64,000 nucleotides of DNA from Mobula hypostoma (lineage: Eukaryota). Each line of letters opens with the position of its first letter. Position 1 is the stretch's first letter. The position numbers and the translations under genes are program-made. Positions 2,064 to 48,300 of the stretch are shown piece after piece. The stretch is taken from NCBI RefSeq assembly GCF_963921235.1, contig NC_086108.1, positions 42,472,001-42,536,000 on the forward strand. Direction: 5' to 3'. The notes below the pieces were generated by a model, which had not been told where the DNA came from, searched no databases, and saw nothing but the letters and a program-made list of their open reading frames with translations.

Positions 2064-2069
2064 TTTATT
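2064..2069 (-). terminator. Candidate GPSM2 polyadenylation signal (AATAAA on minus strand)
   Basis: tttatt on + strand about 1.16 kb downstream of the stop codon; no transcript support. Confidence 0.35.
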
Positions 2070-2870
2070 TTCGAAACTCAGCATCTTAGAGTTCTTTAAA
2101 TGTTCTACTGTACAATAGGACACTCATTGTAATCAATAACTTGCGTATTCCCACTGCTGTATTTTAGAAAAGCTAAGAGTCAAATGTTTTGCAATTGCAT
2201 TACAGAACAAGTATTTTGAATAAAGGCAAAATAAGGGAATGCTTTAACATTTGCAAAGTAGATCTTTAGCAGTTTCTCAAACCAACTGTACATACGTTAA
2301 CTTCAAAATTTACAAATGCTTAAGCTCTTGCATTAATACATGGATATTTATGAAGGTTTTCCACAATTGTATTTGATCATTCCCTTCACAATTATAAAAT
2401 GTATACACATTCATCACTAAACTGGAAGCAAGAATACAAAAAAAAAGATCTGCAGGAGCAGGATTTTGAGTTTTAATTTAAACTTAATTTCTAAAAACGG
2501 TACACTGATTCCAAAGAATGTATACATTATTGAAATTATTTATGCATAATTCAACCATAAGTTTATCATACGTGTTTCTTCCTGTCGCAATTGAAAAAAA
2601 AACCTAAAATTCTGTAGTTTCATGAAAGGATCTTGAAACGGAGAATCAGCCCAAGATTGGCAGCACCAGTCATCAAGTAAGCCTGCAATTTATGTACATT
2701 TGAGAATTGTTCCATTTATAAATACAATTTCCTGTAGGCATTGCCAAAACAAGTCAAACAATAAGTAGTGTAATTTTTCTGTAATTAAAATGTTACTATT
2801 TTTTGCTATTAATTCCAATGTTTGTTGATCTCATAACATGTAAACCTAAAAATCATAATAATTCTTTTCA

Positions 2871-3000
2871 AACGAGAAAATTTGCAGATGCTGGAAATCC
2901 AAGCAATACACAAAGCACTGGAGGAACTCAGCAGGTCAGGCAGCATCTACGTAAAGCTGCTGCCTGGCCTTCTGAGTTCCTCCAGCATTTTGTGTGTGTT
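2871..3000. mobile_element. PLE-derived hairpin in the presumed GPSM2 3' UTR
   Basis: ctggaggaactcagcaggtcaggcagc ... gctgcctggccttctgagttcctccag inverted arms preceded by the tgcagatgctggaaatcc extension. Confidence 0.85.
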
Positions 3001-3224
3001 GATAATATTTTCATTTTACTCTTAAGCAATTTGCATTAAAATTATATTCCTGTAAAATTTTAACAGGTCAATAAAAAAAGCAAACAATTACTCAATTGAG
3101 TACATTTTAGACAAAATTGCCGGTTGCTGGAAATCCAAAGTGCAGTGTAAATTTTACCAATTTCTCATGAATATTTACTATTTTCATTATCAGTCAGCAT
3201 CCATTCATTTCAGTGGGATCGATT

Positions 3225-3383
3225 TTACTTTGTTCCCTCACTGGAACAAAGTGTAACACGTTGTTCATTCATCCGTTTGGCCTGAGATCGTACGATCAGG
3301 CTAAAAAAGTCTTCATCGGGAACAGTTACACACTTCTGTGTAAATTGTGGAGGCGTACATCTCTGGTCATCCAGCCTACAGCC
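3225..3383 (-). CDS. GPSM2: GPSM2 last coding exon, end of GoLoco 3 and GoLoco 4 (GCRLDDQRCTPPQFTQKCVTVPDEDFFSLIVRSQAKRMNEQRVTLCSSEGTK*)
   Basis: atttcag| acceptor; stop TAA at 3227-3225. Confidence 0.96.
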   Translation of the reverse strand, partial: GCRLDDQRCTPPQFTQKCVTVPDEDFFSLIVRSQAKRMNEQRVTLCSSEGTK

Positions 3384-6300
3384 CTGAAATGTATAAATTC
3401 AATAATTGCTTTAATAACATCAATTATTTTTGTAAAAGCTATTTAAAATGGATGCCTAAAACACTAAATGTTTCACTATCAAACTGTGTGTTTAATATTA
3501 CACCTCAGTTCACAAAGCTGCATATTTGTCTCAAGAGGCAGTTAAAATCTACGTACAAGGGAATATCTTTTCCAAAGTTTATATTTTATGTACACTAAAT
3601 GTTCTATTGCCTGGAAGAATTGTCTGATAGAGCTGGAGAATGTGGAATCTGCATCACTGCCAACATTTAAGTAGTATCTAAATTAGCCTGAATCACCTAG
3701 GTATAGAAAATATGGCCCAAAGACTGGAAGATGGGATTAATATGGATGGGTGCCCACAACTGAAAGCAAATTGTATCCCTCTAAAATTCAAAATACACAC
3801 AAGTATACTTTACAAATACCACACTGTCACTTAATTTTTCATTGGAAAATAAAATTACTAAAATCTGGTCCTTGTAATAGGCAGAATCATACCTAATGGC
3901 ATTTATAGGATCTGGATATCACTGGAAATGTCAGCATTTATTGTGCATCTATAACTGCCCCCCCCCCCAAAGTGAGTAGACATTTACAGATTTAGAGGCA
4001 TATAGGTGTGTGTAATCAATTTGGTTATGAGCAATGGTTACCTTCAAAGGACTTCAGTGAACCAGGTTAAATTTAACCACAATGCAGTAAATTGTTATTG
4101 TTACTGATATTAGCTTTAATGTCCATTTAATTTAATAACTTGAATTTATATTCTTTGAGGTATCCTAGGCCAATTAACCGTTTGAACAGTGACAAAACGT
4201 AACTAAAATGATTGGTCAATGCAGTAACAGCCAAGTCTTATCAGTGAAGAATCAGAATTCAGAGAGAGGCTGTAAGGCCAACTTATTTATTAGTGAGAGA
4301 ATACATGGGCCACTGATGACTTTTTTTCTTCTTCTATATTATGTATTGCATTGAACTGCTATTGCCAAGTTAACAAATTTCACAGCACATGCCGGTGTAA
4401 TAAACCTGATTTTGATTCTGATAAGGATTAGATATGTAATGCAGTAGGGTAGGAGTAATCTTTAAATAGAACTTCACAGATGATGACAAACTAATGTAAT
4501 TATGGGACTTAACCAAATGGAACTAAAGGCTCAGATGTAAAATTACAAATGGGAGTTATTAAAGAAAGTGCAGGCCCTTCAGCCCATCATGGTCTGCCAA
4601 CCTATATAAACCCTCTCCGTGATCAATCTAACCTCTCCCTCCCACTTAGCCCATAATGCTCCAGTTTTCTTTCATCCATATGCCTAAGAATCTCTCAAAT
4701 GTCCCTAATGTATCAGACTCTACCGCCACTCTTGGCAGTGTATCTACTATTCTGAGTAGAAAGCCTACTTCAGATATATCCCCTAAACTTCCTTCCACTC
4801 ACTCTAAAAGGATGTGTTTTGGTATTAGCCATTACCACCCTGGGAAAAAAGCAGTGGTTGTCTACTTGATTTGTGCCTCTTATCATCGGATACCCCTCTA
4901 TCAAGTCGCCTCTCATCCTCCTTCCCTCCAAAGAGAAAAGCCTTAGCTCACTCAACCTTTCCACAGCAGATAAGTTCTCTGATCCAGGCAGCATCCAGAT
5001 AAATCTCTGCTACAATCTCTCTAAAAACATCCACGTCCTTATAATGATGCAACCAGAAATGAACACAATACTCTGGTCTAACCAGTTTTATAGAACTGCA
5101 ACATTACCTCACAGCTCTTAACCTCAATCCCATATGACACAGGAGCAGAATCAGGCCATTTGGCCCATCGATTCTACACCACAATTCCATCATGGCTAAT
5201 TTATTATCCATCTCAACACCATTTTCTTGTGTACTCCCAATAACCTAATTAATAATGACTAATTAAATACCTATCAACCTCCTTTTCAAATACACCCAGT
5301 GTCTTGGCCTCCACAGTTGTCTGTGGCAATGAATTTACAGATTCACTACCCTCTGGCTAAAGAAATTTCTCCTAATTTCTGTTCTAAATGGTAATTCCTC
5401 AATTCTGAGGCTGTGTCTCTGGTGCTACATTCCCCCACTATAGGAAGCATCCCCTCCATATCCACTCTATCTAGGCCTTTCAATATTCTATAGGTTTCAA
5501 TGAGATTCCTTATCATTCTTCTAAGTTCTAGCAAGTACAGGCCAGGAACCATCAAATGCTCCCCTTATGATAACCCTTTCATTCCCAGAATCATTCTTGT
5601 GAACCTCCTCTGGACCCTCTCCAATGCCAGCACATCTTGGATAAGGAGTCCAAAACTGCTCACAATATTCCAAGTGCAATGTGGCCAACACCTTATGGAA
5701 AGTATCAACTTTACATAAACACAAGGAAGTCTGCAAACGCTGGAAACACACACAAAATGCTGGCAGAACTCAGCAGTCAGGCAGCATCTATGGAAATGAA
5801 TAAATAGTCTTCCCCCTTCCATCTCAGTCCTGAAGGAGGGTCTCAGCCCAAAACATTGACTTTTTCTTTTAAACCACCCTATCAACTTGCACAGCAACTT
5901 TGAGAGATCTATGGATATCAAAACCCCTCTATTCCTCCACACTACTAAGATAGATAGATATACTTTATTGATCTCGAGGGAAATTGGGTTTCGTTACAGC
6001 TGCACCAACCAAGAATACAGCATAAATATAGCAATACAAAACCCACAAACAATCAAACAACAAATGTAAACTATGCCAGATGGAAAGTAAGTCCAGGACC
6101 AGTCTATTGGCTCAGGGTGTCTGACCCTCCACGGGAGGAGCTGCAAATTTGATGGCCACAGGCAGGAACGACCTTCCGTGCTGCCCAGTGTTGTATCTCG
6201 GTGGGATATGACCGAAGTCCAACAGTAAAAAGTTCAATATCTGGTCTACAAACATGTTCCTCAATCGTAATCCTGCCATTAATCATGTACTCTTAATTTC

Positions 6301-9300: not shown

Positions 9301-12300
9301 ATTTTATACGCTTGTAAGAAGTGATTGGTAGATAGTCAAAACCTTTTTCCATGCTAGAGGTATCAGAAACAAGACAGCATAATTTTACTATGCATAATCT
9401 CTTACTAGCTCTTCTTTCAGTTAGTCCTGATGAAGGGTCTCGGCCCGAAATGTCGACTGTACCTCTTCCTATAGATGCTGCCTGGCCTGCTGCGTTCACC
9501 AGCAACTTTTATGTGTGGAGTATAATTTTAAGGTGAAAAACAGGAGATTTAAAGGAAATCTGCGGGGCAAGTTGCTTTTTACTGACACAAGCTGAAATCT
9601 GGAGCACAGTACCAAAGGTGGGGTGGTGGAATCAGAAACAATTACTATGTTTCAGAAGCATTTAGATATTTAGGTATACAAGGCTTAGGGAGGATACAGT
9701 CCCAATGCAGACATATAACATTAGTGTAGATGAGATGGAAAGGTTGCAGAGAGATGATGGGCTGAAGGCTATACAATTCTATGACTCTGTAACACTTGTC
9801 AGAAGTATTCTGACACGGTCATACAATTTTTATTTGTCACTTTTAATTACAAATGTTGTAATTAAAATTACAACCCTGTTAGAACTATTCCACTCTAAAA
9901 CCCCCCTGCTCTTTGATTTAATCATTTGGATTTAATCTTGGTGTATTCTCATTCTACATCCATTAAACTTGACCAGAAATTGTCAGAGAAATCTATATTC
10001 AGAAATGACATGAACTCTTGCTGATTAAAAGTGAAACACTTGGTAAAACTAAAGACTTACTTGACATTTTAGTAGCATGTCAAAGAAAGGATCATCTGGT
10101 TCCATGCTGTCACCACTGATCAGCTGACTGTGAATAGTGTGGTTATTATACCTGCTCAGTCGCAAGCCAGGAAGATTGCCAGTGCTAGCACGTTGATTAT
10201 CTAATCGACGGCTCTGGGAACTAGCAAGCAGGTCCAAAAACTCGGTCTGTGGTGAGACCACTGATTTGGAGTGAGCTGAAATTAGAGAAAATAGCTCAGC
10301 ATAAAAATTACTGAATGTATCTCAATAAACAACTTTCTGCTGGGTTTCGAAGTTAGTATTTAAAGGTTACTGTGTCTGAATCAAGCAAGAACAGTTCTGC
10401 TAGTGAACAAATGTGATATGTAGTAAATCTATGCAGTTTTAATAAACAATTTCAATGTAGAAATGCTTTAAATTCAAGGAAATTACTGGAAAACTCCAAT
10501 AATTTGCTTTTCCAGTGTTAGTTAATCCATATGTTCAGCACTCAGCTCACCAAAGGCTATTTTCTCTGCTCCCTTTAAACTTACTGAGACAATTTCACCA
10601 TTCTGCTTTCACATGTTCCCTTTAAATATGGCAGGTTCACTGGAAAATTTATTTCATTACTGTGTGGCATCTTGTTGACCAGAAAGAACTACAGTCTGCA
10701 ATCAGTGAATTCAAATGAATCAAAGACAATGGAAGAAGATGGACCAATTACCTTTGTTCTTGCCATAAGGGAGGAGAGAGGATGCCATTTTATGAAAAGT
10801 TATCTATTTTGAGCAAAAGTCGCTTGACTTGATCAGTGGTTTTAAAGTCGACAAAATGATGCCTCAGGTAACCTGCTGAACTAGATATCATTTCCAAATA
10901 AGTTATTTGTGAGGTGTTCTTTGGTTGGATATAACATCCAAGTTTGTGAATGCTGGTCTATGTGATTCAAGCTGGTGGCTGATTGAGAACAAAGAGCCAT
11001 AAATTATGGATTGTCTCTTGCTGGGAAGAGGGCAATAAATGGATGCTGGCCTGCAGCGGAGCCAATAAAAAGGTGTTAAAGATCAGACATGTGACCCACA
11101 GCCAAAGACACTGGAATGCAATGTTTGAATTGGTAAGAAATGAATATGAATCAGATGCTTCAAGTGTGCTGGCAGCAGTAACTCTATAGGAGAACAACTT
11201 TTGTGAATGTGAGGTGTCCCATGGACACAAGAAGATATAAAACTGAACTACAGGGAATGGAATTATCTTTTGTTTTTTGACTGTTCATGGAAGATCACAA
11301 AAACTTAGTAGGTGTGCATACAGGTATTGGTAGTGTAAGTTCATGTGTTCTTCCATGGGATAATAAAAGTATTTATCAGTAATTACAGATTCTCTCTCTG
11401 TATCTCCATGATCATTATTAGAGGGAATGATTCTTGTAACAGTTTAAAGTGAATTTAGTGTGTTGGAGTATTAATAACAGTTACATCACTCAATGACTAG
11501 TTTGGAAAATCTGTCAGTCCAACCCCAAGGTTTTGAGGCTGCTAGATAATTGGTATTTTGCTGTAAATGAAATACTTACCACTTAAATATTGACCTCTGC
11601 ATCTTCAAAGTGATCTTCCTTTTTAAAGGTTTTATTCAACAAGATTGAGTCAAAATCTATCAGTCTCAATCGAGTTAAAACTACTTGTCAGAATTCCCTA
11701 TTATCTGAAAACGTACCTCCTTATTTTAAAAAGCACCTCACACTAAACTTCTGTTAATTAGATTGTTGTGTTTCCATTCCTCTAGTAGGGAACAGAACGT
11801 TCATTCTAATGCACCTGCTGCGGATCAACTGGATGCAAGTTGACAACACAAGAAATATTAGAGTGTGCAGGTGTGTTGTTGAGGTTGAGCACCTGAAAAG
11901 TAAACAAGTACCATGCAGAGAGGATTTTGCTGCATGTGCATTTCTCAACATGTCACTCGCACAAGGATGACAGCAGTAGATGCACCATCACTTTACGTTG
12001 CAATGTGTGCAGTTACTGAAATTTGGAACAAAATCCCAACTAATGAAACCTAATACATGATTCTTCTACTGAATTAATATCCGCCACTGGCTGTTCATGA
12101 GACAGCATATCCACATGTTCCTCAACTATGCAGGACATTGCTCCAATTTCATTAATGAGTAATGACTGCCTTAAGAAATCTTGATATTACATTATTTTAA
12201 TTATTCAACATTATTTTCTTCATTTCAGGTATCCCTCTTCATTTATTCTGAAGGAAATGTAGTTGTCATTCAATCTGCCAAAGAAGGAAAAACTTCATAC

Positions 12301-15300
12301 GAAAATCAGATACAATAAAGTTTGTGCTAAAGATTCCCTTCAACCAAATTGGGCAGAAGTGCAAGGAAAGTAAATATACAAAAAAAATTCAGTGAGCTAA
12401 GTTTCCCCATGCCAATAGGAAAAAGCATCTGTGGAAAATCATGGAACTTAATTCAGGTGTAATGTCATGAAAGGTTTAAAGCACACTCACCCAAGGGTTT
12501 TGGTGGTGTGGATGTGACAGGTAAAGCCTTCGCCGCACAACTCTGATTTCCTGTGAATGAACATCGCTGGTCATCCATACGATTACTCTGGAACTGACTC
12601 AGCAAGTCAAAGAAGCCTTCATCTCCCATTAAATCTGAATTGATTTTCTGAAAATAAGTTTCACAAACTACGCTCAATCTCATTCTAACATTCAACAATA
12701 CTACACAGATATGTGAAAAAAATCATTTCACTTCCCTTGAACCAATTCCGAAATGGGGATAGTTATTTGAAACATTAATAGAGTGAATATTCTATCCAAT
12801 ATTGGCCTGGTAATAAATCATAGAAATCCAAGTGCTCTGTTATACCACAAATGTAGAGAAAAACAAAATGCCTAAATTTATACAAATGGCAAAAGAACCC
12901 AAAGCAGTCAAAAGGTAATTTTTTTTTTCTTACACAAGAAGTTATAAGTTGGAATGCAATACCTAAAAAGGTGAACTTAACATCCTGGCTTAGACTTCAA
13001 CTTTATATCCAGTCTAAATTGCATCACTTGTTCTCTGTTACATTGTAATGTAACAAGTGAGTGCCCCTCCCTTGATCGAGGTTGTCCGTGGATGTTGCAT
13101 CCTAGCTATCTATGTTGTTGGTGATGGCTGGCAAGAATAATGCGTAGGTGGCAGTCTCTCATGCAAAAGTTGCATCTTTATGTGATCTGGGCTCTGCAGG
13201 AGATGCAGTGTTCCTTTCTATGGGCCCATTTGTCTTCTGCTGTTTTCCACACCTGACTTAAGGTGTCGTTTTAGGCTGCTGCTTTCTCTATTTGGCGCAG
13301 TGGGCTGCAAGTTCCTCCCAGAACTCAGTGTTGATGTCCAGTGGCTTCATGTCCTGCTTGCAGATGATATTGTAGCGCAGTTGCAGGCAGCCAGCAGTTC
13401 TCTTACCTGGAGCCAGCTCACTGTCGAGGATGTCTTTGGGATGCAGCCATCCTGCATGCAGCAGACATGGCCCAGCCAGCACAGTCTACGCAGGTGTACA
13501 CAGTAGGGAGGCCAGTATAAGAGAGAACCTCAGCATTTGGTACTCGTTCTCTCCAGGAAGTGCATAAGATACAAAGACGACACCTTAAATGGAAGGTGTT
13601 AAGCCTTCTTTCATGCTTAGTATATGTTGTCTAGGTCTCACTGCCGTACAGCAGTGTACTGGTGACACAAGCATTACCTACAGCCATCTTTGTTTTGACT
13701 GAGAGTCTGGAGTTCTCCCATACACCTATTGTTGAGGCAAGAGTTGTTGCAGCCTTCCCAACGCACTTGCCAATTTCTGCCTCCAAAGGGAGGTTGTCAC
13801 TGATGGTGGACCCCAGGTATGCAAACTGATGAACAACATCCAGTTTACCGTTATCAATGGTAATGATTGGTAGTGCCTTCATGTCTTGTCCCAAGACATT
13901 TGTCTTTTTCAGGTTGATTGCCAGACCAAATTCCTTCACAAGCTAAATATTGTTAAAATATTCAAAGACTTAAATACACTGTTTTGGAACTACATTTTAG
14001 CTGGGGAAAAAGTACTTCTATTTGCTTCCACACATCCTTCTATAATAACCACTTACGTAGTCGGGCTCCTTTCTTTTCCTTGTCTCCTCTCAGCCCCTTC
14101 CTCAGCCATATATACACCTCCAAAATTACTACCTATTCAAGCTATTCTCTTCAGGATAAGTGTTGTTTGGCTGGAATAATATTAAACATTTCATTCAAAT
14201 AAATATCTTGTGATTTGCATGACCCTTTGGAACAACTCATCCATTTAATTCAGCATCAATAAAATTAAGTAATTTTGCTTATACTACAGGTGTTCTAGGT
14301 TGGTTTTCTTCGTGAATGACTCAAGATGATACAGAAATAATCCAGGGAATGAAGTTGGTACACAGAATTCAAAACAAACAAAATATAAAATCTGTATATT
14401 CCGCATCATTTAGCAAACCAAAACATGGCATAATGGTGCAAATACAGAAACTATAAACAGAAAACCAAATTTCTTAAATTAGCTTACCTTTTTTGGAGTA
14501 TGGACTTGAGCATCATTTAAGACCACAGAATTACTGGCATCTTTTAAAGCTTTTGCAGATGAATTGTTACTTTTATGCTTTTTTCCCCTGAATCGGTTTA
14601 TAAACAACAACTTAGTCGATGGTTTCCAAAGGGCAGGTTTCTGTTTCATGAGAATTTCACTCTTCCAATTCTGAACCTAGACAAAAATAAGTTCATCAGT
14701 ATTACAAAACTAGCACATAAAATCTCAAAAAAATAGTTGCTAGTCAGTGGAATACAAGATGAGTTGGACGTAGTTGTGTTTTAAAGAGCATCTTTTTAAC
14801 CCCACTCTGTTAGGGAAGATGCTAAAACAGATCCCTCTGACAAAGAGGAAGCAAGACCTCATTTCATTGCATTGAAATTACTTGTTACTTTCCAGTTAGA
14901 CCTACTGAAAACATCTTAAACTTCAGTACATTGCATAGCATCTGAGAATTTTCCAGAATGGTTAATATGTCCCATTTTGCACACGTCTGCCTTCATTCCT
15001 TTGCACTTCCAAAATATAACTTCACTCCCTTTCAGCTTCCACAACTCATGTTCCAAACAATTTGAGAAATTCAAGCATCTCTACCAAAGAAAACTTCCCA
15101 GTCCATTTGGCATTCTGAAGAGACTGTTAACTCCCAGCATCAAAGCCCTTTCCCACTTAAGCAAAGATACATCAACATTTTCACTTCCCCCTCATCACCC
15201 TTCTTTTTATTTTTAGAATATGCTCTGCTCATTGATGTAGTTTTATCCAAATTGACCTTCTATTTTAAGGCAACTAAACATACATCGCTTGTTTTCTTAA

Positions 15301-24300: not shown

Positions 24301-27300
24301 ACTGAAGTTGGCTGAATAATCAGTATACAAATATCTTCACCTACTGCGATCCCCTATTGTGAAGACCTCTGCAGGCAAGCTAAAATGCTTCAACTGCAAA
24401 AAGACAGCTAAAACCAAAAGAGCATGAACGGTCAAGGGACAAAGGGCTCTGGCACTGTTGAGAGTTGGACATACCATAAAGATATACCATGTCAGACTAA
24501 TATCAAATGTGTTAGAAGGAAGTGGTACCAATAGTGACACAACTACTCTACGTCCACAAACAACAGGAATTCTGCAGATGCTGGAAATTCAAGCAACACA
24601 CATCAAAGTTGCTGGTGAACACAGCAGGCCAGGCAGCATCTCTAAGAAGAGGTACAGTCGACGTTTCAGGCCGAGACCCTTCGTCGTCGGCCTGAAACGT
24701 CAACTGTACCTTTTCCTAGAGATGCTGCCTGGCCTGCTGCGTTCACCAGCAACTTTGATGTGTGTTACTCTACGTCCAACTGGTGTGAACAATTATCTCT
24801 CTTAAAGCAATATATTTGCTGACCACAACCACCTCTTCCAAGTGGAAGAATACTAATGAAGGAACACCTTACTTAGGAATCTGCAGGATATTTCTTTGCA
24901 ATATTTAATGCCAGATTTCATCTGGTCACGAGTACACATCATGGACCACTGGCAGGTTTCCTTTTGAATGAGAACCACTGTGCCATTACTGCTAGTGGAT
25001 CTTCTCTGCTTTTGAAACTGACATATACGGGAATGATGATGGTGGCAGATTCATTCAAGATTTAAGATTGGTTAATGTAATTTCCAGTACACAAGTGTAA
25101 AGGAGAATGAAGTGTCTGACCAACTACCACAAACATGTCAGCTGACGAATTTAAGGAGCTAACACACTCCATCACTTTCACACCATCGAGAATGCTCTCC
25201 ATGCCATCCCACACCTACACTTTGGAAAGCCTAATCACTTCTACTACTGGCATGTCGGCAGAGACTGGGGACTGCAACACCAATGAGGACCATGCAGGTC
25301 TGGTCAAGGAAGGCTGAGGAGTACTTAAGGGACTGCTTTGTGGACTGGACCACATTCAAGGATTCAATATGCCACAGCCGTCACCAATTTCATCAAGACC
25401 AACATCAATGAATATGTGCCTTTAAAAACAGAGGTTTCCCAGATCAGAAGCCCTGGATGAATCAAGAGGTTCGCAGCTATGTCTGTGGCATTCAAGAACA
25501 GGATCGAGAACCCTACCAGAAATTGAGATACAGCTACGGGAGATCATCATGAGAGCAAAAAGGCAATTTGGTGTGAAGTCAGAAACACAATCAGATGCAC
25601 AACAGCTCTACCAGGATTTGCATGCTATTATGAGGCAAAACTCAACAGCATAAATAGTATACACGAGGAATTCTGCAGATGCTGGAAATTCAAGCAACAC
25701 ACATCAAAGTTGCTGGTGAACGCAGAAGGCCAGGCAGCATCTCTAGGAAGAGGTACAGTCGACGTTTCAGGCCGAGACCCTTCATCAGGACTAACTGAAA
25801 GAAGAGTTAGTAAGAGATTTGAAAGTGGGAGGGGGAGGGGGAGATCCAAAATGATAGGAGAAGACAGGAGGGGGAGGGATGGAGCCAACAGCTGGACAGG
25901 TGATTGGCAAAAGGAATATGAGAGGATCATGGGACAGGAGGCCCAGGGAGAAGGGGGGAAAAAACCCAGAAGATGGGCAAGGGGTATAGTCAGAGGGACA
26001 GAGGGAGAAAAAGGAGAGAGAGAGAAAGAATTGTGTATATAAATAAATAACGGAATGGGTACGAGGGGGAGGTGGGGCATTAGCGGAAGTTAGAGAAGTC
26101 AATGTTCATGCCATCAGGTTGAAGGCTATCCAGACAGAATATAAGGTGTTGTTCCTCCAACCTGAGTGTGGCTTCATTTTGGATTTCCCAATCTTCATTT
26201 GGGAGATTTTGGATCTCCCCCTCCCCCTCCCCTCCCACTTTCAAACATGTTACTAGTTCTTCCTTCAGTTAGTCCTGACGAAGGGTCTCGGCCTGAAAGG
26301 TCGACTGTACCTCTTCCTAGAGATGCTGCCTGGCCTGCTGCGTTCACCAGCAACTTTGATGTGTGTAGCATAAATAGTATTGATGCTTCACTCCCCAATG
26401 AGTACAATACCTTTTATGCATACTGTGAAAAGCAGAATAAACACCAAATACCCACAGTACATAGTGACCTTGTGACCCCATCTCAGAAACCAATGTCAGA
26501 ACATCATTCAGGAGGGTGGAGCTTCACAAAGCATCAAGCCCAAACAGTGTACGTGGCCAGGTACTGAAAACCTGTGCCAACCAATGTGCTGCAGTAACAA
26601 TCAACAAAGGCGCATCTCAAAGATGCATGCTTAGCCCACCATTCTACTCTCTCTACACTTACAACTGGGTAGATAGTCACAGCTTAAAAGCCATCTGTAA
26701 ATTTTGTAATGATATTACTTTTTTTTGGTGTGTGCCTGCATGCGTGCGAGTCTGTGCGTGTGCGTGCGTGCGTCCGTGATGATGTCTTTTTCATGTCTTT
26801 TTACAAGGCGCGGAGCGAGAGCGAGAGAGAGAGCGAGAGAGAGAGACTGCGTGGCCGCCACTCCTCACACAGGCATTTTTGCAGTATTTTTCCCTTTATT
26901 TTATGAGGTCGAGCAGCGATCTCGACACTCAACCTGGCATGGATGGAAAGCGTACTCAGGAGCGGACCCGACTGGTTTCAAACCAGGGAACCTCCGCTCC
27001 TGGGTCCGGCGCCGGTTTCATTGCGCCACCAGCCGGCCCCTAATGACATTACTGTCGTTGGTAGAATCTCAGATGGTGACACGTACAGAAGTGAGACCGG
27101 CCACCTGGTTAAGTGGTGTTACAACAACCTCAGATTCAGTGTCAACAAAGCCATGGAATTGATTGTGGACTTCAGGAAGGGGAAATACACTTGTCCTCAT
27201 TGAGGGCTCAGTGGTTCCTGGGCATCAAGACTAGATAACTTACCCTAGGCCCAACGGATTGATGGAATTATGAAGGTGGCACATTAGCAGCTCTACTTCA

Positions 27301-30300
27301 TTAGGAGTTTCAGGAGATTTGGTGCCTCCAAATTCTCTGTAAATGTCTATAGATGCGCAGTGGACTGGCTGCATCACAGCCTGTAATGGAGGTTCCAATG
27401 CACTGGGGGACAGAAAATCTCATATTCAGTAGCTTTAAGAAGGAAAACTAAAGCGGAACTTTTAGTGATTACTAATAGCATTAAAGAAATAGATAAAGTT
27501 TATTCAGTAACACCTAGTGAAGATCTATATAAGGGTGAAACTTCAAACACAACATGATCTGCTTTTGACTTTTCCCATTGAGCCGCAACTTTTGAAATCT
27601 AAAAGTCAATTTTATATACATGGGGATAAGTCAGGTAAATTGTTGGCCGGTCAGCTTAAAGCAAGCATGGCTAGGAGGCAGATTTTGAAAATACGAATAA
27701 CTGATAGAACTGAAACGTCAGATTGTCAGGAAATTAATGAGCTATTTTTGGAGTTTTACTCTAATCTTTATAAATCTGATTTTCAAGACAATACTACTTC
27801 TATGAATAGATTCTTGCAAAGATTGAATATACCCAAAATTTCTATTCACGATATGAATACATTAGATGCGCCTATTAAACGAGAGGAAATAGCAAGGGCT
27901 ATATCCTCTTTTCAATCAGGTAAAGCTCCAGGACCAGATGGATTTACAGTAGCATTTTTTAAGACTTTTACTGAAATACTTACACCTCATTTATGCCAAA
28001 TTTTCACTGATTCTATATCCTCTGGGACCCTTCTGAAAACTTTCTATGGGGCATCAATTTCATTAATTCCCAAAAAAAAAGATTATCTGAATGTGCCTCT
28101 TACAGACCAATTGTCTTATTAAATGTGGTTTCCAAAATTCTTTCTAAGATTTTGGCTAACAGGCTCGAGAATATTTTACCTAAGGTTATTTCTAAGGATC
28201 AAACTGGATTTACTAAGAATAGATATTCATATTTTAATATTTGGAGATTATCAAACATTATTCATTCCTCTCCATCTAAAGAATCCGAATGTGTTGTTTC
28301 CCTTGATGCAGAGAAAGCCTTTGATAGGGTAGACTGGTCCTATTTATTCGAGGTTTTAGAAAGATTTAATTTTAGTCCAGGTTTTATTTCCTGGATTAAG
28401 CTGATCTATCAAGCTCCTATGGCAGCAGTTATAACTAACAATCAAAAGTCTCCTTATTTTAGGCTATACAGAAGTACCTGGGGGGGTTGTCCTCTTAGTC
28501 CGCTGTTATTCAACCTGGCTTTAGAACCTCTTGTTATTGCTGTTCGGGATTCCAATAATGTTCAAGGTATTAAGAGAGGAGATAAAGCGCATAAGTTTTG
28601 CTGTATGCAGATGACTTGTTAGTTTATATTTCAGATCCTAAGAAATCTATTCTTTCTACGTTATCTATATTTTCTGAATTTTCTGAATTTGGCTCTTCCC
28701 ACTTTCTTCAGACCAAGGGTGTAGCTATGGGAACTCGCATGGGCCCTAGCTATGTCTGCCTCTTCGTTGGTTATGTGGAACAGTCTGTGCTCCAAACCTA
28801 TTCTGGTACTGCTCCCCAACTTTTCCTTCGATACATTGACGACTACATTGGTGCTGCTTCCTGCACCCATGCTGAGCTCATCAATTTCATCAACTTTACT
28901 TCTAACTTCCACCCAGCCCTCAAATTCAATTGGTCTATCTCGGACACTTCTCTCCCCTTTCTCGATCTCTCGGTCTCCATCTCTGGGGACAGACTGTCCA
29001 CTGACATCTTCTACAAGCCCACTGCCTCTCATAACTACCTCAACTATACCTCTTCCCACCCCGCCACATGCAAAAATGTCATTCCCTATTCCCAGTTCCT
29101 CCGTCTCTGCCGCATCTGCTCCAAGGATGAGGGTTTCCGTTCCAGGACATCTCAAATGTCCTCTTTCTTTAAAGATCGTGGTTTCCCTTCTGCTGTCATT
29201 AATGATGCCCTCGCCCACACCTCCTCCATTTCCTGCACTTCAGCTTTCACCCCATCCTCCCTCAACCACAACAGGGACAGAGTTCCCCTTGTCCTCACCT
29301 ACCACCCCACTAGCCTCCGCATCCAACACATTATCCTCCGCAACTTCCGCCACCTTCAACAGGACCCCACCATTAACCACATCTTCCCCTCTCCATCCCT
29401 CTCTGCTTTCCGCAGGGATTGGTCCCTCCGCAACTCCCTTATCCGCACATCCATCCCCACGGATCTCCCACCTGGCACTTACCCCTGTAAGCGCAAGTGC
29501 TACACCTGTCCCTACACCTCCTCTCTTGCCACCATTCAGGGCCCTAAACAGTACTTCCAAGTGAGGCAACACTTCACTTGAGAGTCTGTTGGGGTCACCT
29601 ATTGCATCCGGTGCTCCTGGTGCAGCCTCCTCTACATCGGTGAAACCCAACGCAGATTGGGGGACCGCTTCGTCGAGCACCTCCGCTCCGTCCGCCAAAA
29701 CAGACAGGATCTCCCAGTAGCCACCCACTTCAACTCTGCTTCCCACTCCCATTCAGATATGTCCATACATGGCCTCCTCTACTGTCATGATGAGGCTAAG
29801 CTCAGGTTGGAGGAGCAACACCTCATATACCATCTAGGTAGTCTCCAGCCCCTTGGTGTGAACATAGAATTCTCCAACTTCCGGTAATTCCCTCCCCCTC
29901 CCTTCCCCTATCCCTATGTCACTCTGCCCCCTCCCCCAGCTGCCTATCACCTCTGTGCTTCCCCTCCCCCACCCCTTTGTCTTTCCCCTTACTGGTTTTT
30001 CACCTGGAACCTACCAGCCTTCTCCTTCCCACCCTCCCCCCACCTTCTTTATAGGGCCTCTGCCCCTTCCCTCTACAGTCCTGACGAAGGGTTCCGGCCC
30101 GAAACGTCAACCGATCTTTTCCACGGATGCTGCCCGACCTGCTGAGTTCCTCCAGCGTGTTGTGAGTGTTGCTTTGACCCCAGCATCTGCAGATTATTTT
30201 GTGCTTATAATTGCAAACTGTAGTCAATAATAATGGAAGAATCAACCTAACACAAATAACTTTAAATGTTACCTATCACAAAGTTCTTGTGCTATCATAA

Positions 30301-39300: not shown

Positions 39301-42300
39301 TCAAAACCTTAAAAGTATTGCCAAGGTTGCCACTAGCCTTAGCTTCTCCTAGTCGATCGCCAATTGTTCTGAAAATTAAGCAAATAAATTAAAACATGCA
39401 ACTGGCAATGTTTCCGCATGGCACTTGTTCTTAATGCCCATCTCACCTTTTAAGCCGCTTACACTGTGATCTTGTTGAAAGAATTTACTCTGATTAAAAC
39501 AAATTAGCTACATTTATTCCCAAGAACCTTTTGGTCACCTATTTGGTGGTGATAACTACAAACTTGCCTGGAATGCGAATATTAACACGTGCACTCTGTT
39601 TATTTCATCATTACAACATCTAGACTTGATTATTTTATTGTCGCAACTCTGTAGAACATTGTCAGGCAAGCTACAAATCAAATGTTGACCATCTCTTCTC
39701 CCCCCCACCCCCATTTCCCACTCTGACCTTTCACTTCTCACCTGCCTATTAATTCCCTATGTCCCCACCTCCTTCCTTTTTACCTATTGTCCACTCTCCT
39801 CTCCTATCAGATTCTTTCTTCTCCAGCCCTTGACCTTTCCCACCCACCCGGCTTCACATTATCACCTTCCAGCTAGCGTCTTTCCCCTCCTGCCACCTTT
39901 TTATTCTGGCTTCTTCCCCCTTCCTTCTCAGTCCTGAAGAAGGATCTCTGCCGGAACATTGACTGTTTACTCTTTTCCATAGATGCTTTCTGACCTGCTG
40001 AGTTCCTCCAGCTGTGAGAAAGAGGGAGATAGTGAGAGAGTGAGAAGCTGCTTTGGAGTTCCAGCACTTCTAGACTTTGTCGTGTTTGTTTTCAACAAGG
40101 ATAAATTGAAATATTGGTGGAATTTCAACATCAGAACAAGAATTTTAAACCACCATGGGAAGGGGTGGGAAAACAGGACATGCTGAATTGGGAAATGTAG
40201 AGCAGGGTTTTAAACGTTTCACATGCTGACACAATATGGTCTCACTTCTTTTTTAATATATTTATTCATTCTTGGGATGCAAGCAAGTTTGATATTTATT
40301 AGTCATTACAATTCCCCACCTCCACGTGGTGAGGATACAACCTGAAATTAATATTGTGGGAGAGGTTCCAAGATTTTATCAAGATTCAAGATTTTAAAGT
40401 TCCAAAAAATTTCAAGATGTAGCATAGTGGTTCGTGAGATGTGTTACAGCTCGGGACATTCTGGAGTTTGGAGATCGATTTCAGCGCCACGCTGTAAGGA
40501 GTCTCTGTACACTTTCCCCATGGACTGCGCAGTTTCCCCCGGGCGCTCTGGTTTCCTCCCACAGTCCAAAGACATACCAGGTAGGTTAACTGGTCATGGT
40601 AAATTGTCCTGTAATTAGGTTAGGGTTAATTGGGGTTGTTGGGGCAGAAGGGCCTAGTCCACTGTGTGTTGCTGAATAAAATAATGTTTTAACCAAAACA
40701 TAACAGCCTCATATACCAAGATCAATGGTGTGACTCTGAAGTAGGAGGTGGTAATATTACAATGTGATAGCTGATCTTGTGCTTATAGGCAGTAGAGGTA
40801 ATGAGTTTTTGAGGAAGATTTTTATCATGTTGAGAGGGAGAAGTTCATACTCAGTTTCTAATCCATTACAATACCAGCAATATTCATGTATTTTTTTCAA
40901 GTTTGTGCTGGCTGACACAAGAAATGCATGGAATGTCAAAGGGAAGACCTCCCACCTCTTTGTGTAGTTGATATATCCCCCCCCCCATTTATCATCCTTA
41001 CCTCCTCAGACTAAATGATTCACTAAAAAAATCATTATTAGAGCTAATAATCATGCAATAAGAGGCCATTCCTAACTCTGATAGTTTTAATAATCTTCTT
41101 TCCATAACAAAAAAAAAGGATACCAGGAACCCCAGCAACAAAACAGGTTCTGTGCAGACTGAATTCCAATAACTCCTTTTTCAGTTTTAGGGACTTAGAG
41201 GACAGTGATGTGTTTTCTAAAGCAATTGTCATCAATTTCAGAGTTTCTTAGTATTATACTCAGCCCAATGCTACATGAAAGCAAGGGTGGTCAGTCACTC
41301 TCAGCTCGGTGCTGGAATTTGACTCTTGTTTATAATTGGATTCAGGTAGTAATGGACATTGATTAGAAAAAATAAACCTGCTCCTTAATACTTAGGTTAA
41401 GTATTCCAAAGTTACACAATCAATGATGTCCCATTGTTATTTTGTGAGGAATCAACAATAGCTCATGTTATATTGTTTTCTGTTTTGCTGTCAGGAAACA
41501 AATCACACAGTTTTACTTTGATGGGTAAATGCTCTTAACTATATGGGAAAAGCTGGGCTAAAGTTACAGCAACATCTGAAGCCTGTGCCTTTTTCACATT
41601 GGTCAAAAAAATAGAGCTCGTTTACTTTAATGAGATTCCAAGTCTGGGCCTCAGAAAGCAGCTTAAAGGAAGTAGCAACATGGCACCTCAGCCTGGGGGT
41701 TGTACGGGCTTCCATCTCAGGATGAACTCTCTAATTAAAGCTCAAGATGATCATGGAACCTCCAGCTGCTTTTAAAAAAAGTATAATTATCCACCACACA
41801 CTAAAACTTGAGTCTTCAGTTACAGGGATACTTTGCTTTTTGTACAGCTTTGCATTATGCCTCTGCCATTTAATTAGAAGTCATTTGGTCCAATCTAGTT
41901 ACATTAAGCTTTTGAAGAAATGTAAGAAATTCAAGCTATGTTTATTGTCATAAGCACAATGCACAGGTGCAATGAAAGACGTACCAGTACCAGGACCACA
42001 AACACATAGCATCGGATAAACAGTGTATACAAGAAAAACAAATTATACACAACTTTGACAAGAAAGAACACAATTAAAAAAAAAAGCCCTCTTTAGTGCA
42101 AACTGATAACAGTGGTCAAAGTGGTTGTGTCAGTTGATTTAAGAACCAAATGGTTGAAGAGAAGCAGCTGTTCTCGAGCCTGGTGGCTTAGGACTTCAGA
42201 CGTCTGTACCTTCTGCGCAATGGTAGCTGCAAGAAGATGACATGGCCCAGATGGCGGGGACCTTTGATGATGGGTGTTGCCTTCTTGAGTCAGTACCTCC

Positions 42301-45300
42301 TGTGGTAACTACTGATACTGAAGAGAGATATGCTCATGGTGTACTGAGCAGAGTCCACTACACTGCAGCTTCTAACATTCCTGCACATTTCAGCTGCTGT
42401 ACCAGATCATGATACAATCAGTCAGGACACTTTCAATAGAACACCCGTAAAGTTTGTTAGGTTGTTCCTGAACATCCTTAATCTCCTAAGAAAAGTAAAG
42501 ATGCTGGCAGAGTTTCCTTCTATATGCACGACCCAGGATAGGTCATCCACAAACTTAAAGCTGCAGACTTTACACTGCTGATTCCCCCAATGTACACTGA
42601 CAATGTTCACTTTCCAAAATTTGCAATCAGCTCAAGTGAAGGTTGATAACCTCCCCTTAAGGTGTTTAGGAATCCTTAATATCCTTAAGGAGATAGCTTA
42701 AGCTCTAACCACAATATTTAATCAAACTGAATAACAATTTAGCCAAATCAACAAGCAAATTGTAAAATGTTCTTATTTAAAACTCTGAAGGAACAGTCAA
42801 ATCAGATAATATTATGGAAAAACTACTGGGAAACACTGTCAAGAACTTTTTTAAAAATTGCACTTAGGTAAGCATATAATGTAGTCATGCATAAACACAA
42901 AGTTCTTACAAGGCAGTCAGCAATGGAAGCTAAATAATGCTCAACTAATGTTGATCTGGTTATTTAAGTGAAGAGATTGAAAGAGGTGGGGCAAGAATAT
43001 ACTATGGTAAGTCATAAGGATGAGATTCTGCAGATGCTGGAAGACAGCAGGTCAGAGAGCATCTATGGAAAAGAATGGAGAGAAGGGATGAAGTAAGATG
43101 CTGAGAGGTGGTAGGTGGAAGAGATAAGGGGTTGAAAGAGGAATCCAACAGGAGAGGGGAGTGGACCACGGGAGAAAAGGAAGGAGTGGGGCAGGTGAAG
43201 AGAAAGGAAGGGGTAAGAGAGGAACCAGAAGGAGGAATGGAAAAGCAAGAAGGAGGAAGGATGAGAAATTACCAAAAGTTAATGGGGAAAGAAGATCAAT
43301 GATCATGCTGTTAGTTTGGAGGCTACCGAGGCACAATATGAGGTGTTGTTCCTCCAGCCTCAGAGTAGTAGAAGAGGTCATTGACCAACAAGTCTGAATG
43401 GGAATGGGAAATCAAATTGAAGTGGGTGGCCATCGGGAAATCCTATGTCTTCTGAGAAGGATGGAGCATAAGTGCTATATATCACCTAAAAATTAAATTA
43501 AATTAGCACTGCAAGAGCAGAGAGAGAAAAAAAGAAAAAATAGTGAGGTAGTGTACATGGATTCATTGCCCAGTAAGAAATTTGATGGCAGTGGGGAAGA
43601 AGCTGTTTCAAAAGCGTTGAATGTCTCTTCAGGATCCTGTACCACTTCTTAAATGGGAACAATGAGAAGAGAGCAAATTTATAGATGACATTTGAGCTGT
43701 ACCTAGCCGCACAGTCATAGATGTAGAGAATAGAGCAGTCAGCAAAGCACACATCCTTGAGGTATGCCAGTGTTGATTGGCAACAAAGAAATGATGTTAT
43801 TTCTGTTCTACACTTACTGTGGTCTCCCAACGAGGAAGTCAAGGATCCAGTTGCAGAGGGAGGTACAGAGGACCAAGTTTAAATGGTTCTGTTTATTATC
43901 AGAGAATGTATACAGTATACAACCTGAAATGCTTAGTCTTAGCAGACATCCATGGAAAACAGAACCCAAAAGAATGAACGACAGAAAAAAATGTTAGAAC
44001 CCCAAAGCCCCCACTCCTCCACACAGGCAGCAACAATGCATCAACCTCCACATCCCCATCCACTTCAGCAAAAAGTGTCAGTGTTTCTCTCTCACTCAGT
44101 CACTCACATGGGACAGAGAGATTGTCTTCCCTTCCCCTCTGAAATGGGTAAGGGAAGACTAACAGTCACTGTTACGATGTTATAGTCTGCTGCATCACTT
44201 TTAATTCCAAAATGCGTGGCAGAAAGCAGGATCTCCCAGTGGCCATGCATTTTGGTTCCACGTCCCATTCCCATTCTGGCGTGTCTGTCCGTGGCCTCCT
44301 CTGCTGTGGAGATGGGGCCGCAATCGGGTTGGAGGAGCAGCGCCTTGTGTTCCGCCTGGGTGGCCTCCAGCCTGGTGGTGTGGACGTCGACTTCTCTGGC
44401 TTCCGCTGGTGCCCCGCCTCCCCCTCGTGCCCCATCCGTTATTTGTTTTTATACACACATTCTTTCTCTCGCTCTCCTTTTTCTCCCTCTGTCCCTCTGA
44501 CTGTACCCCTTGCCCATCCTCTGGTTCCCCCCACCCCCCGCTTGTCTTTCTCCCCGGACCTCCTGTCCTGTGATCCTCTCATATCCCTTTTGCCAATCAC
44601 CTGTCCAGCTCTTGGCTCCATCCCTCCCCCTCCTGTCTTCTCCTATCATTTTGGATCTCCCCTTCCCCTCCCACTTTCAAATCTCTTACTAACTCTTCCT
44701 TCAGTTAGTCCTGACGAAGGGTCTCGGCCTGAAACGTCGACTGTACCTCTTCCTAGAGATGCTGCCTGGCCTGCTGCGTTCACCAGCAACTTTGATGTGT
44801 GTTACCCTTATACTTTATACTTTATTGTCGCCAAACAATTGATATTAGAACATACAATCATCACAGCGATATTTGATTCTGCGCTTCCCACTCCCTGGAT
44901 TACAAATCGATAGTAAATATTAAAAATTTAAATTATAAATCATAAATAGAAAATAGAAAATAGAAAAATGGAAAGTAAGGTAGTGCAAAAAAACCGAGAG
45001 GCAGGTTCGGATATCTGGAGGGTACGGCCCAGATCCGGGTCAGGATCCGTTCAGCAGTCTTATCACAGTTGGAAAGAAGCTATTCCCAAATCTGGCCGTA
45101 AGAGTCTTCAAGCTCCTGAGCCTTCTCCCGGAGGGAAGAGGGACAAAAAGTGTGTTGGCTGGGTGGGTCGTGTCCTTGATTATCCGGGGCAGCACTGCTC
45201 TGACAGCGTGCGGTGTAAAGTGAGTCCAAGGACGGAAGACTGGTTTGTGTGATGTGCTGCGCCGTGTTCACGATCCTCTGCAGCTTCTTCTGGTCTTGGA

Positions 45301-48300
45301 CAGGACAACTTCCATACCAGGTTGTGATGCACCCTAGAAGAATGCTTTCAACGGTGCATCTATAAAAATTAGTGAGGGTTTTATGGGACAGGTCAAATTT
45401 CTTTAGTTTTCTCAGGAAGTAAAGGCGCTGGTGGGCCTTCTTGGCAGTGGACTCTGTTTGGTTGGACCAAGTCAGGTCATTTGTGATATTGACCCTGAGG
45501 AACTTAAAGCTTTTGACCTGTTCCACTTGCGCACCATCGATGTAAATTGGGTTGTGCGGTCTGCTACTCCTTCTGAAGTCAACAACCAATTCCTTCGTCT
45601 TGCTGACGTTGAGGGATGCTCTGACATCAGCCTGAGAGACACAGATTACAGGGTCACAGATGCTGCATGGGTTCACACAGTGTAGCTTTATTCTCCCTTT
45701 TAAAGTGTGCATAAAAGGCATTTAGCTCATCTGGGTGTGAAGCGTCTGTCATTCATGTTAGATTTTGCCTCATAGGAAGTAATGGCCTGCAAACACTGCC
45801 AGAGCTGACAAGCATCTACCCGATTCAGTCTCTAACCTCAATCAGAAATTTTCTCACCTTAGAATAGCTTTCCATAGGTTGTACCTGGATTTCTTGTACA
45901 GTTCTGGATCACCAGTCTTGAATGGCCTGGGCATATACTCGTAGGCAAACATTCACCCACACCGGTCTTGAAGAAGTCAGTGACAATTGTGGCATATTCA
46001 TTCAGACTTAAAGATGAATCCCTGAATATTGTCCAGTCCAACAACTCAAAGCACTCTTCTGCATCCCTTGACCATACCTGCTTGGTCCTCAGCACTGGTG
46101 CTGTGGTCTTTAGACTCTGTCTATGCGCTAGAGTAGAAGTACAGCCAGGTGATTGGACTTTCCAAAGTGTGTCTTGGGATGGAACAGTAGGTATTCTTGA
46201 TGGTGGTCGAGTGTATTGGCTCCTGGTGATATATCAGTGGGAGTTGTTCAGAGACATCTTCCAAGTTGGCCTGGTCAAAATCCAGGATGTGGCTGCTGGT
46301 CACGGTGCTCAGCTCCTCCAGTGCCTGCCTGATGTTGACAAAGAATGGAATGAACACCGCTACCAGTAAGACAGCAGAAAATTCGGTCGGCAGATAAAAT
46401 GGATCATACATGACTGTGAGCTGTTCCAGGTCAAGGGAGCAGGAATGGAACTGAACCATCAAGTCTTTGTACCACGATGAGTTAATTATGAAGCATATTC
46501 CCCCTCCTCTAACCTTAAAAGACTCAATTGACCCGCCTTTACAGTGAATGGTGAAGCCATTCATTTGCAGCACCTCATCCAAAATGATGGGGGTCAGCTA
46601 TGTTTCTGTGAAGCAAAGTACGCAGCAGTCTGTGATGTCCCTTGGTACTGCAATCTTGCTCTGAGCTCTTACAGTTTTATTTTCCAAGAGACTGTACTTT
46701 CACTAACAGGATAGTGGGGGGGGGGGAGCCTCTACGTTTTAATCGTACTTTAGCCCAGCACGCCTTCCCAACTTCCATTTTCTTAAATGTGAACGGCCCT
46801 CGTGACCTGAGTCTGCCATCCAGGGTCTGTCACTTTTGAGAATCGATAGATTTTTTAAAAATGTCTTAAAAAGATGATGCCTCCTGAAGTACCCAAGGCT
46901 GTGACTGGAGTTCGGCTGTATTACTCCTAAACAAGAAATGTTTGCTGATTCCCATCGGAGCTGCATGCTTATTGGCACTGCCTTGAAGGAAAGGAAAATT
47001 GAAAAATGGAAAGAAAATTGGTAGTAGAAAGGAAACCCTGTTCTTTGAAGAAGGAAGTTATCTTACATGTTCTGGAATGGAAAGCTTCACCCTGAGAACA
47101 GATACAGCAGAGATGTTGGAACTAAAGAAACAACTGAAGAAGGTGAGAAGAGGTCTAGTCAGGATAGCTGTGAGAGAGTGGATTTATAAAGTAAATCACT
47201 AGATATTCTGCCTCCAAGAACTTTGTATACATTGATATTAAAATGGATGAAGAGGGATGAACCAAGCCAAATAAATCAGTTTTCGAACTAAGTCCGTAAC
47301 CTGAATTAAATCCAGTGACCTTTGTATACTTGCAGGTAAATATTTACAGGCAGAGTGTTTGCTTACCTTGCGAGTGTCAGGTCATGATGGTGGTACTCCA
47401 GAGCTTTAGAATAATCATGCAAATAAAAATAAGCATTTCCAAGCTGACTGTAGATAGCACTGAGAGTTTTCAGATCCTCTGTTCCAACCTGAACTGCTGC
47501 TTCAAAAAATGATACCCCAGCTCGACAGTCTCCTGCTTTACAGAGTCGTTCACCTTCTAAAGCTAGCTCCAAACAGGAAGCCTCCATTCTGAAAAAAACC
47601 AAGAAGCATTAAGGAATTCTTGTCATCTGCTCTTAAGCAAATAAAAGGAGAGAGATCCAAATGAATAAAGGCCCCTAGAATTGAAGGTGGGGAAAATGCG
47701 GAAGAGTTAAACTGATATGTGTACCCAATAATCCTAAAAGAAGCAAGTACTAAAATAGCAGATGCAGTAGTTGGAATACAAATATGAAAAAGTCTGCAAA
47801 TGCAGGAAATCCAAAGCAACACGCACACAAATGCTGGAGGAGCAGCGGGCAGCATCTAAGGAAAAGAATAAAGAATAAAAATCGATGTTTCACGCCAAGG
47901 CCCCTCTTCAGGACTGAGAAGGGGAAAGATGCCAGGATAAAAAGGTGGGGGGCGGAGAGGGAAAGAGGTTTGCTGGAAGGTGATGGGTGAAGCCAGGTGG
48001 GTGGGGAAGATCAAAGGCTGGAGAAGAAAGAATCTGATAGGAGAGGAGAATGGATAATGGGAGAAAAGGGAGGAGGGGGGAACCCAGAGGGAAGTAATAG
48101 GCAGATGAGAGGGAAAAAAAATCAATCCATGGTCTTCTAGTGCCAGGAGGAGGCCACCTTCAGGGTGGAGGAGCAACACCTTATATTCCGTTTGTGTACC
48201 CTCCAAACTAATGGCATGAGTATCGATTTCTCCTTCCAGTAAACAAATACCCCCGCCCCAAACTCCTCTATTCCCCACTCAGACCTTCTACTTCTTTTCA

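Follow-up and report, generated by a model that had tools for sequence, protein, structure and literature searches.

We analysed a 64,000-nucleotide stretch of the Mobula hypostoma genome (contig NC_086108.1, positions 42,472,001 to 42,536,000 of the forward strand; hereafter the window, numbered from its first letter) and found that one of its Penelope-like retroelement copies, which we call W, carries a dense cluster of A-to-G changes on the sense strand of the element. Judging from sequence, it is very probable that the RNA template of W was deaminated from adenosine to inosine, most likely by ADAR, before it was reverse transcribed and integrated in the germline. The proposed course of events starts with promiscuous A-to-I deamination of element RNA, most likely by ADAR acting on a long duplex over element positions ~1459–1766. 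The reverse transcriptase of the element would then treat inosines as G's, and the edits would become inherited sense-strand A>G changes once the copy was integrated by target priming in the germline. The same sequence of events would have taken place many times in the family.

W is the 5'-truncated 3' end of a Penelope-like element (44221–44803, plus strand, 583 bp), and BLAST against a long reference copy (L002) and other loci places it at element positions ~1482–2063. Element coordinates are those of L002 throughout, a window position being the element position plus 42739. By its reading frames and copy number, the family to which W belongs appears to be a young, very abundant Penelope-like retroelement that encodes a reverse transcriptase followed by a GIY-YIG nuclease. 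The genome containing the window measures 3.48 Gb, and a 36-mer from the 3' part of the element occurs in it 33,488 times at up to one mismatch.

A-to-G changes in the copy W

As a reference for W we took the commonest base in each column across 70 further copies, 38 of them young and the other 32 drawn without bias. Compared with this majority, 36 of 104 A sites in W were changed to G, versus 2 of 179 T sites changed to C (Fisher p = 9e-16). The ten substitutions that remain besides these two classes (six C>T and four transversions, with no G>A) correspond to the load of ordinary young copies, and the first 36 reference copies carried between 0 and 4 A>G changes each. The hypermutated stretch runs from 44247 to 44503 (plus strand) and holds 35 of the 36 A>G changes, the last one being found at 44570. 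Up to 44505, 35 of 65 A's were changed (54%) versus 1 of 39 beyond this position (p = 1e-8), and the distal 3' part of W, which comprises the 3' untranslated or pseudo-long terminal repeat portion (44506–44803, plus strand), is therefore unedited. The change at 44570 is part of an isolated CA>TG outside the cluster (44569–44570, plus strand), which may represent either a 36th edit whose newly created CpG has decayed or two ordinary mutations. Promiscuous ADAR editing of long perfect duplexes is known to reach ~54% of A's.

These counts bear out an earlier reading of the window made from its letters without database searches (the sequence-only reading), which had described both the extension of A>G changes to either side of a hand alignment and the unedited distal part. 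The alignment itself, an ungapped 137-nt comparison of 44312–44448 with the reverse complement of 26041–26177, was reproduced exactly, with 23 of 33 A's replaced by G, eight other differences and no G>A. The sister copy used in that comparison is unedited (25696–26180, minus strand) and stands head-to-head with another copy at 26206–26366 (plus strand).

Three older, diverged relatives within the window served as outgroups. The first of them (29705–29900, plus strand) is 79% identical to the unedited copy and 70% identical to W, and the other two are located at 48122–48232 (plus strand) and 43290–43444 (minus strand). At the sites where W has G, A is kept by these relatives in 22 of 30, 18 of 28 and 19 of 24 cases. 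Because all three keep A at most sites, G is the derived state in W, in agreement with what had been noted for other copies in the window.

The changes extend into the C-terminal remnant of the GIY-YIG endonuclease frame (44221–44409, plus strand), where the family stop codon TAA has become TGG (44407–44409), and the frame therefore reads through, as had been pointed out before. An ATG at 44212 opens the 233-codon read-through frame, and the corresponding stop-to-stop frame has 253 codons (44152–44913). W is in any case a non-functional, dead-on-arrival insertion.

The base preceding an A influenced the proportion changed. In W, A's were changed in 12 of 16 cases after T (0.75), in 8 of 12 after A (0.67), in 11 of 25 after C (0.44) and in 4 of 11 after G (0.36). 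The claim that nearly all TA sites had been lost was thus roughly right, since the share is 75%. The changes also affect how such copies would be annotated: typical young copies of the family are 95–97% identical to one another, whereas W reaches only 91% with its best relatives, its surplus of differences being made up wholly of A>G, and edited copies look ~9% diverged though they are as young as copies with 2–3% divergence.

The edit zone and the recurrence of hypermutated copies

All characterised hypermutated copies have in common one edit zone of ~310 nt, which spans element positions 1459–1766 (window 44198–44505), and the 5' end of W (element 1482) lies just inside it. In five hypermutated copies that reach well upstream, A>G changes were confined to element 1450–1800. 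Upstream of the zone these five copies had no A>G among 40–58 A's, and at element 1850–2101 they had no cluster and no A>G apart from one in L038. The 1–3 A>G changes that they carry in the 1800 bin include a subfamily variant. In a hand count of loci L001–L094, 5' ends and head-to-head junctions of family copies were seen to pile up at the upstream border of the zone, with ~19 of ~75 ends at element 1432–1502 (equivalent to 44171–44241).

The limits of the zone bear on whether the changes could be errors of reverse transcription, in which the enzyme puts dC opposite rA, for example because of a skewed dCTP/dTTP pool, and sense A>G arises without any RNA editing. Such errors would likewise be strand-specific and precede integration, they need no duplex partner, of which none was found, and the 3'-neighbour pattern reported below is unlike that of textbook ADAR. 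However, a pool imbalance should act on the whole complementary DNA (cDNA) and certainly on the first-copied 3' 300 nt, where W has 1 of 39 A's changed; the five long copies are free of A>G clusters at element 1850–2101 and upstream of 1450. In addition, the 5'-neighbour order T>A>C>G and a saturation of 54% within a sharp zone fit a duplex-bound deaminase. We consider error-prone reverse transcription unlikely, although less so than the other alternatives discussed below, and favour deamination of the RNA template.

Motif counts speak against a subfamily. The 25-mer of W with four G's (GG..GG) occurs nine times, versus 10,969 exact occurrences of the A form (AA..AA) and none of a control form with four T>C changes, and a second motif requiring three G's occurs 18 times, versus none for its T>C control. 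When either A or G was allowed at the four A sites, 576 copies were added, compared with 177 when either T or C was allowed at four T sites. For an unbiased sample, copies were taken in chromosomal order through an unedited 3' motif; 33 were fetched and 32 could be aligned over at least 300 nt, L050 being dropped as too short. None of these 32 copies was hypermutated, their A>G changes ranging from 0 to 8 and their T>C changes from 0 to 15.

The hypermutated set, which consists of motif matches plus copies brought in by BLAST with W, contains 25 copies with 6–39 A>G changes among at most 71 zone A's and 0–4 T>C changes among ~100 T's. The zone maximum in 72 reference copies was 4 A>G changes. 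Three pairs within the set share both A>G and other variants and are therefore each counted once, as duplications of later date, so that 22 copies are distinct; no other pair has 60% or more of its A>G sites in common. Pooling the zones of the 22 distinct copies gave 455 A>G at 1451 sites, 29 T>C at 1930, 21 G>A at 877 and 81 C>T at 2336, so that the strand bias first described for W holds against the family majority in the set as well. Two of the pairs, L086/L087 (C40, ~4 kb apart) and L092/L093 (C64, ~3 kb apart), lie on opposite strands with near-identical edits and other variants, and have the appearance of inverted duplications that arose once the element had inserted.

Among the first twelve copies compared, nine (L004, L008 and L037–L043) share subfamily markers other than A>G that are absent from W. 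Hypermutated copies thus occur on two subfamily backgrounds, and the sharing of G sites among the twelve does not fit a tree. Moreover, L003 (G000:C66:41260422-41261630) is one head-to-head insertion whose arms carry 16 and 11 zone A>G changes with eight sites in common, and the two arms probably go back to separate RNA templates with different edits. The differing marker backgrounds, the non-tree-like sharing and the unequal arms of L003 point to separate events at favoured sites. As a cross-check, the hot-spot G's of each motif were looked for in the copies retrieved with the other and were present in 4–5 of 7 and 6–7 of 11 cases.

Ordinary subfamily structure would offer another account, the G's having come from an older or separate lineage, either gradually or through gene conversion from it. 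Some G's are indeed common to all hypermutated copies first compared (e.g. 44399 and 44409), and at a few positions in the zone some ordinary copies, though a minority, also have G, two observations which suggest that some edited RNAs came from sources already carrying earlier G's. A separate lineage is nonetheless hard to reconcile with motif counts of 9 versus 10,969 and 18 versus 0, with outgroups that carry A, with site sharing that is not tree-like and with a marker background in W that differs from that of the nine copies; nor would gradual change yield 455 A>G versus 29 T>C. Since the rest of the substitution spectrum of W is that of an ordinary young copy, the G alleles do not define a balanced subfamily, and we give this account a very small probability. 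Recurrent deamination of the RNA template accounts better for the set.

Enzyme, timing and duplex partner

We tested the 5' neighbour at the level of sites across the 22 distinct copies, leaving out the seven sites that had been used for finding copies. The edited share was 0.38 after T, 0.31 after A, 0.22 after C and 0.13 after G (Kruskal p = 0.001). The U>A>C>G order recovered here and in W corresponds, as far as base context can tell, to the order known for ADARs, which supports the preference noted in the sequence-only reading. Exons for the adenosine-deaminase domain (A_deamin) are present at seven loci of the genome. No APOBEC-type clusters of sense G>A were found in W, which has no G>A, or in the zones of the 22 distinct copies (21/877), and the direction of the changes in W speaks against APOBEC, as had been argued. 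Among deamination routes, only A-to-I on the RNA template would give sense A>G.

Edited copies are present on both chromosomal strands. The bias therefore follows the sense strand of the element, which places the event before integration. This supports the earlier proposal of an edit on the element's own sense RNA, and our inference is that ADAR was the enzyme and RNA, not yet reverse transcribed, its target. An accompanying argument, that editing of the host pre-mRNA would appear as T>C on this strand, has no bearing here, since edits of that kind would not be recorded in DNA.

The same distribution bears on strand-specific processes that would act on DNA after insertion, namely transcription-associated A>G asymmetry, GC-biased gene conversion or a DNA adenine deaminase. 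Such a process would be in keeping with the position of W, antisense in what looks like an intron of a GoLoco-motif gene, and with contigs of a possibly-RNA run that cover its flank. However, GC-biased conversion would raise T>C equally, whereas the counts are 2 versus 36. More generally, one ~310-nt zone of the element was hit at 22 loci spread over different chromosomes and both strands, with neighbouring element sequence and 72 further copies left untouched, so that the bias follows the element and not the locus. A post-insertion origin is accordingly very unlikely compared with a change made on the RNA template.

The G's are present in genomic DNA and are old. A C preceding an edited A is now T in 12 of 127 cases, versus 5 of 419 for a C preceding an unedited A (p = 3e-5), and three of the six C>T changes in W (44246, 44379 and 44569) fall at CpGs created by edits. 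Such decay of edit-created CpGs indicates that the G's have long been resident in methylated germline DNA. Contigs of DNA runs with two organism labels cover all of 43900–45100 with no differing letter listed within the zone, bearing in mind that an unlisted difference is not proof of identity and that the best-matching DNA run may have been made from the sample used for the assembly. One 64-nt contig of the second organism label falls on 44280–44341 with three differences. The great abundance of the repeat and the possible origin of the best-matching run would leave some room for an assembly or sequencing artefact, but a DNA run from a different study and organism label has contigs over the flanks and over part of the zone, with no differing letter listed in the zone, CpG decay at edited sites cannot be an artefact, and the pattern recurs at 22 loci. 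The chance of an artefact is close to negligible. Each of the refuting conditions set out in the sequence-only reading, when examined, turned out in favour of that reading.

A further run, X9, is presumed rather than known to be RNA. Its contigs with a similarity of at least 95% to W had summed depths of 1600–3900 over 44269–44391, and the unique flank at 44105–44227 had 4.3–4.7; two DNA runs had depths of 13–631 in the same 44269–44391 bins. Depth is averaged over each whole contig, so parts of a stretch cannot be compared by it, and the depth of X9, which may reflect abundant W-like G-rich RNA, a transcribed W copy or nothing, was not used as evidence.

ADAR requires double-stranded RNA, and the sharp common zone argues for a defined duplex. 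Several observations weigh against ADAR editing of the template. Folding of the unedited sense RNA of the zone gave no long hairpin and no more structure than expected (z = -0.73, with 25 of 100 shuffles folding at least as well), and an 8-kb self-comparison around L002 revealed no young internal complement of the zone, only an old inverted fragment of 68% identity. In head-to-head pairs the 3' end is invariably part of the arms, but no editing is seen there. With respect to sequence context, the 3' neighbour had no significant effect (p = 0.20) and G gave the lowest share (0.16 at site level), whereas mammalian ADAR hyperediting is usually enriched for 3' G. In addition, the majority reference rests on ~70 of more than 10,000 copies, and the search for further copies used queries or motifs resembling W, which inflates the amount of site sharing; the correction made covers the seven motif sites only.

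The proposal that hairpin-forming transcripts were the substrate gained no support from these comparisons, given the fold of the sense RNA and the fact that head-to-head dimers would pair the unedited 3' end. A simple read-through hairpin across a head-to-head pair was rejected because the arms always reach the unedited 3' end, so that the 3' 300 nt would be paired too. The window contains a second head-to-head pair (24595–24685, minus strand, with 24687–24771, plus strand), whose fold-back arms of ~90 nt consist of the 3' end only.

As a hypothesis only, a fold-back RNA with an antisense start would fit both borders of the zone. An antisense RNA starting near element 1766–1800 of the inverted arm and running into the forward arm would fold back over ~1459–1766 only, leaving the 3' end single-stranded and free for the reverse transcriptase, and the upstream border of the zone would be the head-to-head junction. 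A broader suggestion, which we put forward tentatively and consider rather doubtful, is that the family makes a defined fold-back RNA of this kind, with a ~300-bp stem over the end of the endonuclease gene, and that ADAR routinely hyperedits the stem. Editing would then be a mutational brake, because a measurable proportion of new insertions would lose both nuclease and stop codon. If true, this would correspond at the RNA level to restriction by APOBEC, would concern a class of retroelements absent from mammals and would have left its fossils genome-wide. Any role of the editing in defence or diversification is a matter of speculation.

Known systems and further features of the family and window

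ADAR hyperediting of Alu-type inverted-repeat transcripts affects about half of the A's in long duplexes, disfavours a 5' G and takes place in RNA only. The family of W resembles inverted Alu pairs in the promiscuous editing of about half the A's and in the disfavoured 5' G, but the edits of Alu pairs are not inherited, and here the inverted pairs of the family alone do not explain which part is edited.

Precedents also come from retroviruses. ADAR-linked A-to-G hypermutation has been described in proviral DNA of Rous-associated virus 1 (Felder et al. 1994) and avian leukosis virus (Hajjar and Linial 1995; both cited in PMC8586724), and ADAR-attributed A-to-G changes captured by reverse transcription also for HTLV-2/STLV-3 in culture (PMC8586724). 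Like the changes proposed for our family, the avian retroviral ones are sense A>G clusters that arose on RNA and reached DNA through reverse transcriptase, with an excess of 5' A/U and a depletion of G. Unlike our family, those viruses are exogenous and were seen in infection or culture, whereas here inherited Penelope-like copies at at least 22 loci share one fixed ~310-nt zone. We judge that hypermutation by ADAR recorded through reverse transcription is known for retroviruses but, as far as our search went, not for inherited Penelope-like copies.

In inherited vertebrate retroelements, APOBEC has left well-known footprints in the form of G>A (Knisbacher and Levanon, PMC4866542; Zaranek et al., PMC2873906), and in a survey of long terminal repeat elements mismatch types other than G>A were very rare (PMC4866542, PMC2873906). 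Both cases concern the footprint of a host deaminase fossilised as strand-biased clusters in integrated copies, but APOBEC acts on minus-strand cDNA and leaves G>A, whereas here RNA would have been the target, the changes are A>G and W has no G>A. Restriction by ADAR1 and ADAR2 is on record for human LINE-1 (PMC5224506; see also PMC8677026), where ADAR likewise meets a retrotransposon that integrates by target-primed reverse transcription. Restriction by ADAR1 was reported to be independent of editing, with no editing in more than 2.5 kb of L1 RNA (PMC5224506). Restriction there proceeds without edits, whereas the edits themselves are the finding here.

Penelope-like elements with a C-terminal GIY-YIG domain are often truncated at the 5' end, where a second, inverted and likewise 5'-truncated copy may adjoin them, and they carry a tail of 30–40 bp on one side only (Craig et al., PMC8557442), and an anole Penelope-like element extends both target strands in vitro (Frangieh et al., PMC11167929), which would produce head-to-head pairs. 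The family of W resembles these canonical elements in its apparent order of reverse transcriptase and GIY-YIG domains, and in 5' truncation, inverted abutting copies and one-sided tail. The available portions of PMC8557442 and PMC11167929 make no mention of RNA editing of Penelope-like elements. A literature search, with many subscription papers outside its scope, returned no inherited ADAR-type A>G clusters for any retrotransposon and no paper linking ADAR editing with Penelope-like elements.

If our interpretation is true, the hypermutated copies provide a countable natural record of the frequency with which ADAR-edited RNAs completed retrotransposition in a vertebrate germline. They would further show that a reverse transcriptase of the Penelope type can work through a 300-nt stretch of RNA with inosine in place of about half the A's, and the zone would map a discrete double-stranded RNA region in an element class whose transcription and integration are poorly understood.

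The assignment of the family is based on longer copies. In L002, the decayed reverse transcriptase frame, which contains YIDD, matches Pfam RVT_1 with E = 8.7e-4 (19.5 bits, under the 29.6-bit cut-off), and the unedited endonuclease frame matches Pfam GIY-YIG with E = 1.3e-3 (19.4 bits, under the 22.6-bit cut-off). The string GVIYC...LLYIGET is readable in the endonuclease frame of longer copies, and the domain order, reverse transcriptase followed by endonuclease, is as expected. In the three best Atlas clusters (scores 0.96–0.97), GIY-YIG was present in 56%, 13% and 27% of members. The extent of 5' truncation varies among copies, and by our own reading of the locus table a head-to-head partner lies within ~250 bp of the 5' end at ~16 of 36 loci. 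Copies end at element ~2064 or ~2101, 37 nt apart, which represents a one-sided tail that W does not have. Many sequencing contigs continue beyond 44803 with a common sequence.

Within the 3' part of W, a hammerhead-like core can be recognised by eye at 44711–44741 (plus strand), consisting of CTGACGA, a short stem, GAAAC and the palindrome GTCGAC. In layout (CUGANGA...GAAAC...GUCGAC) it resembles the minimal hammerheads known from Penelope-like elements. The Rfam hammerhead models gave no match in 42000–46000 or 44660–44810, even at E up to 1 or up to 10, and no other RNA family matched convincingly there. At position 44730, within the core, ~15–20% of the family contig depth has C instead of T. 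Two sub-threshold Rfam matches were taken as chance, mir-204 (E = 0.063) and PrrB/RsmZ (E = 0.016). The weak match to the mir-204 precursor, at 44110–44171 (minus strand), scores 21.6 bits versus a gathering score of 48.4 and is probably fortuitous.

With regard to the surroundings of W, the sequence-only reading had named GPSM2 as a host gene in antisense orientation. Three GoLoco-motif exons on the minus strand of the window (3249–3314, 10184–10243 and 12555–12620) fit a gene of the GPSM type, and for this reason W probably lies antisense in an intron of such a gene, which may be either GPSM1 or GPSM2.

Finally, long copies of the family differ in structure around element 822/824. L002 is without ~197 bp that are present at this point in other long copies (L011, L021, L026, L032, L034 and L036), and L004 carries there a 93-bp piece of the element's own 3' end in direct orientation.

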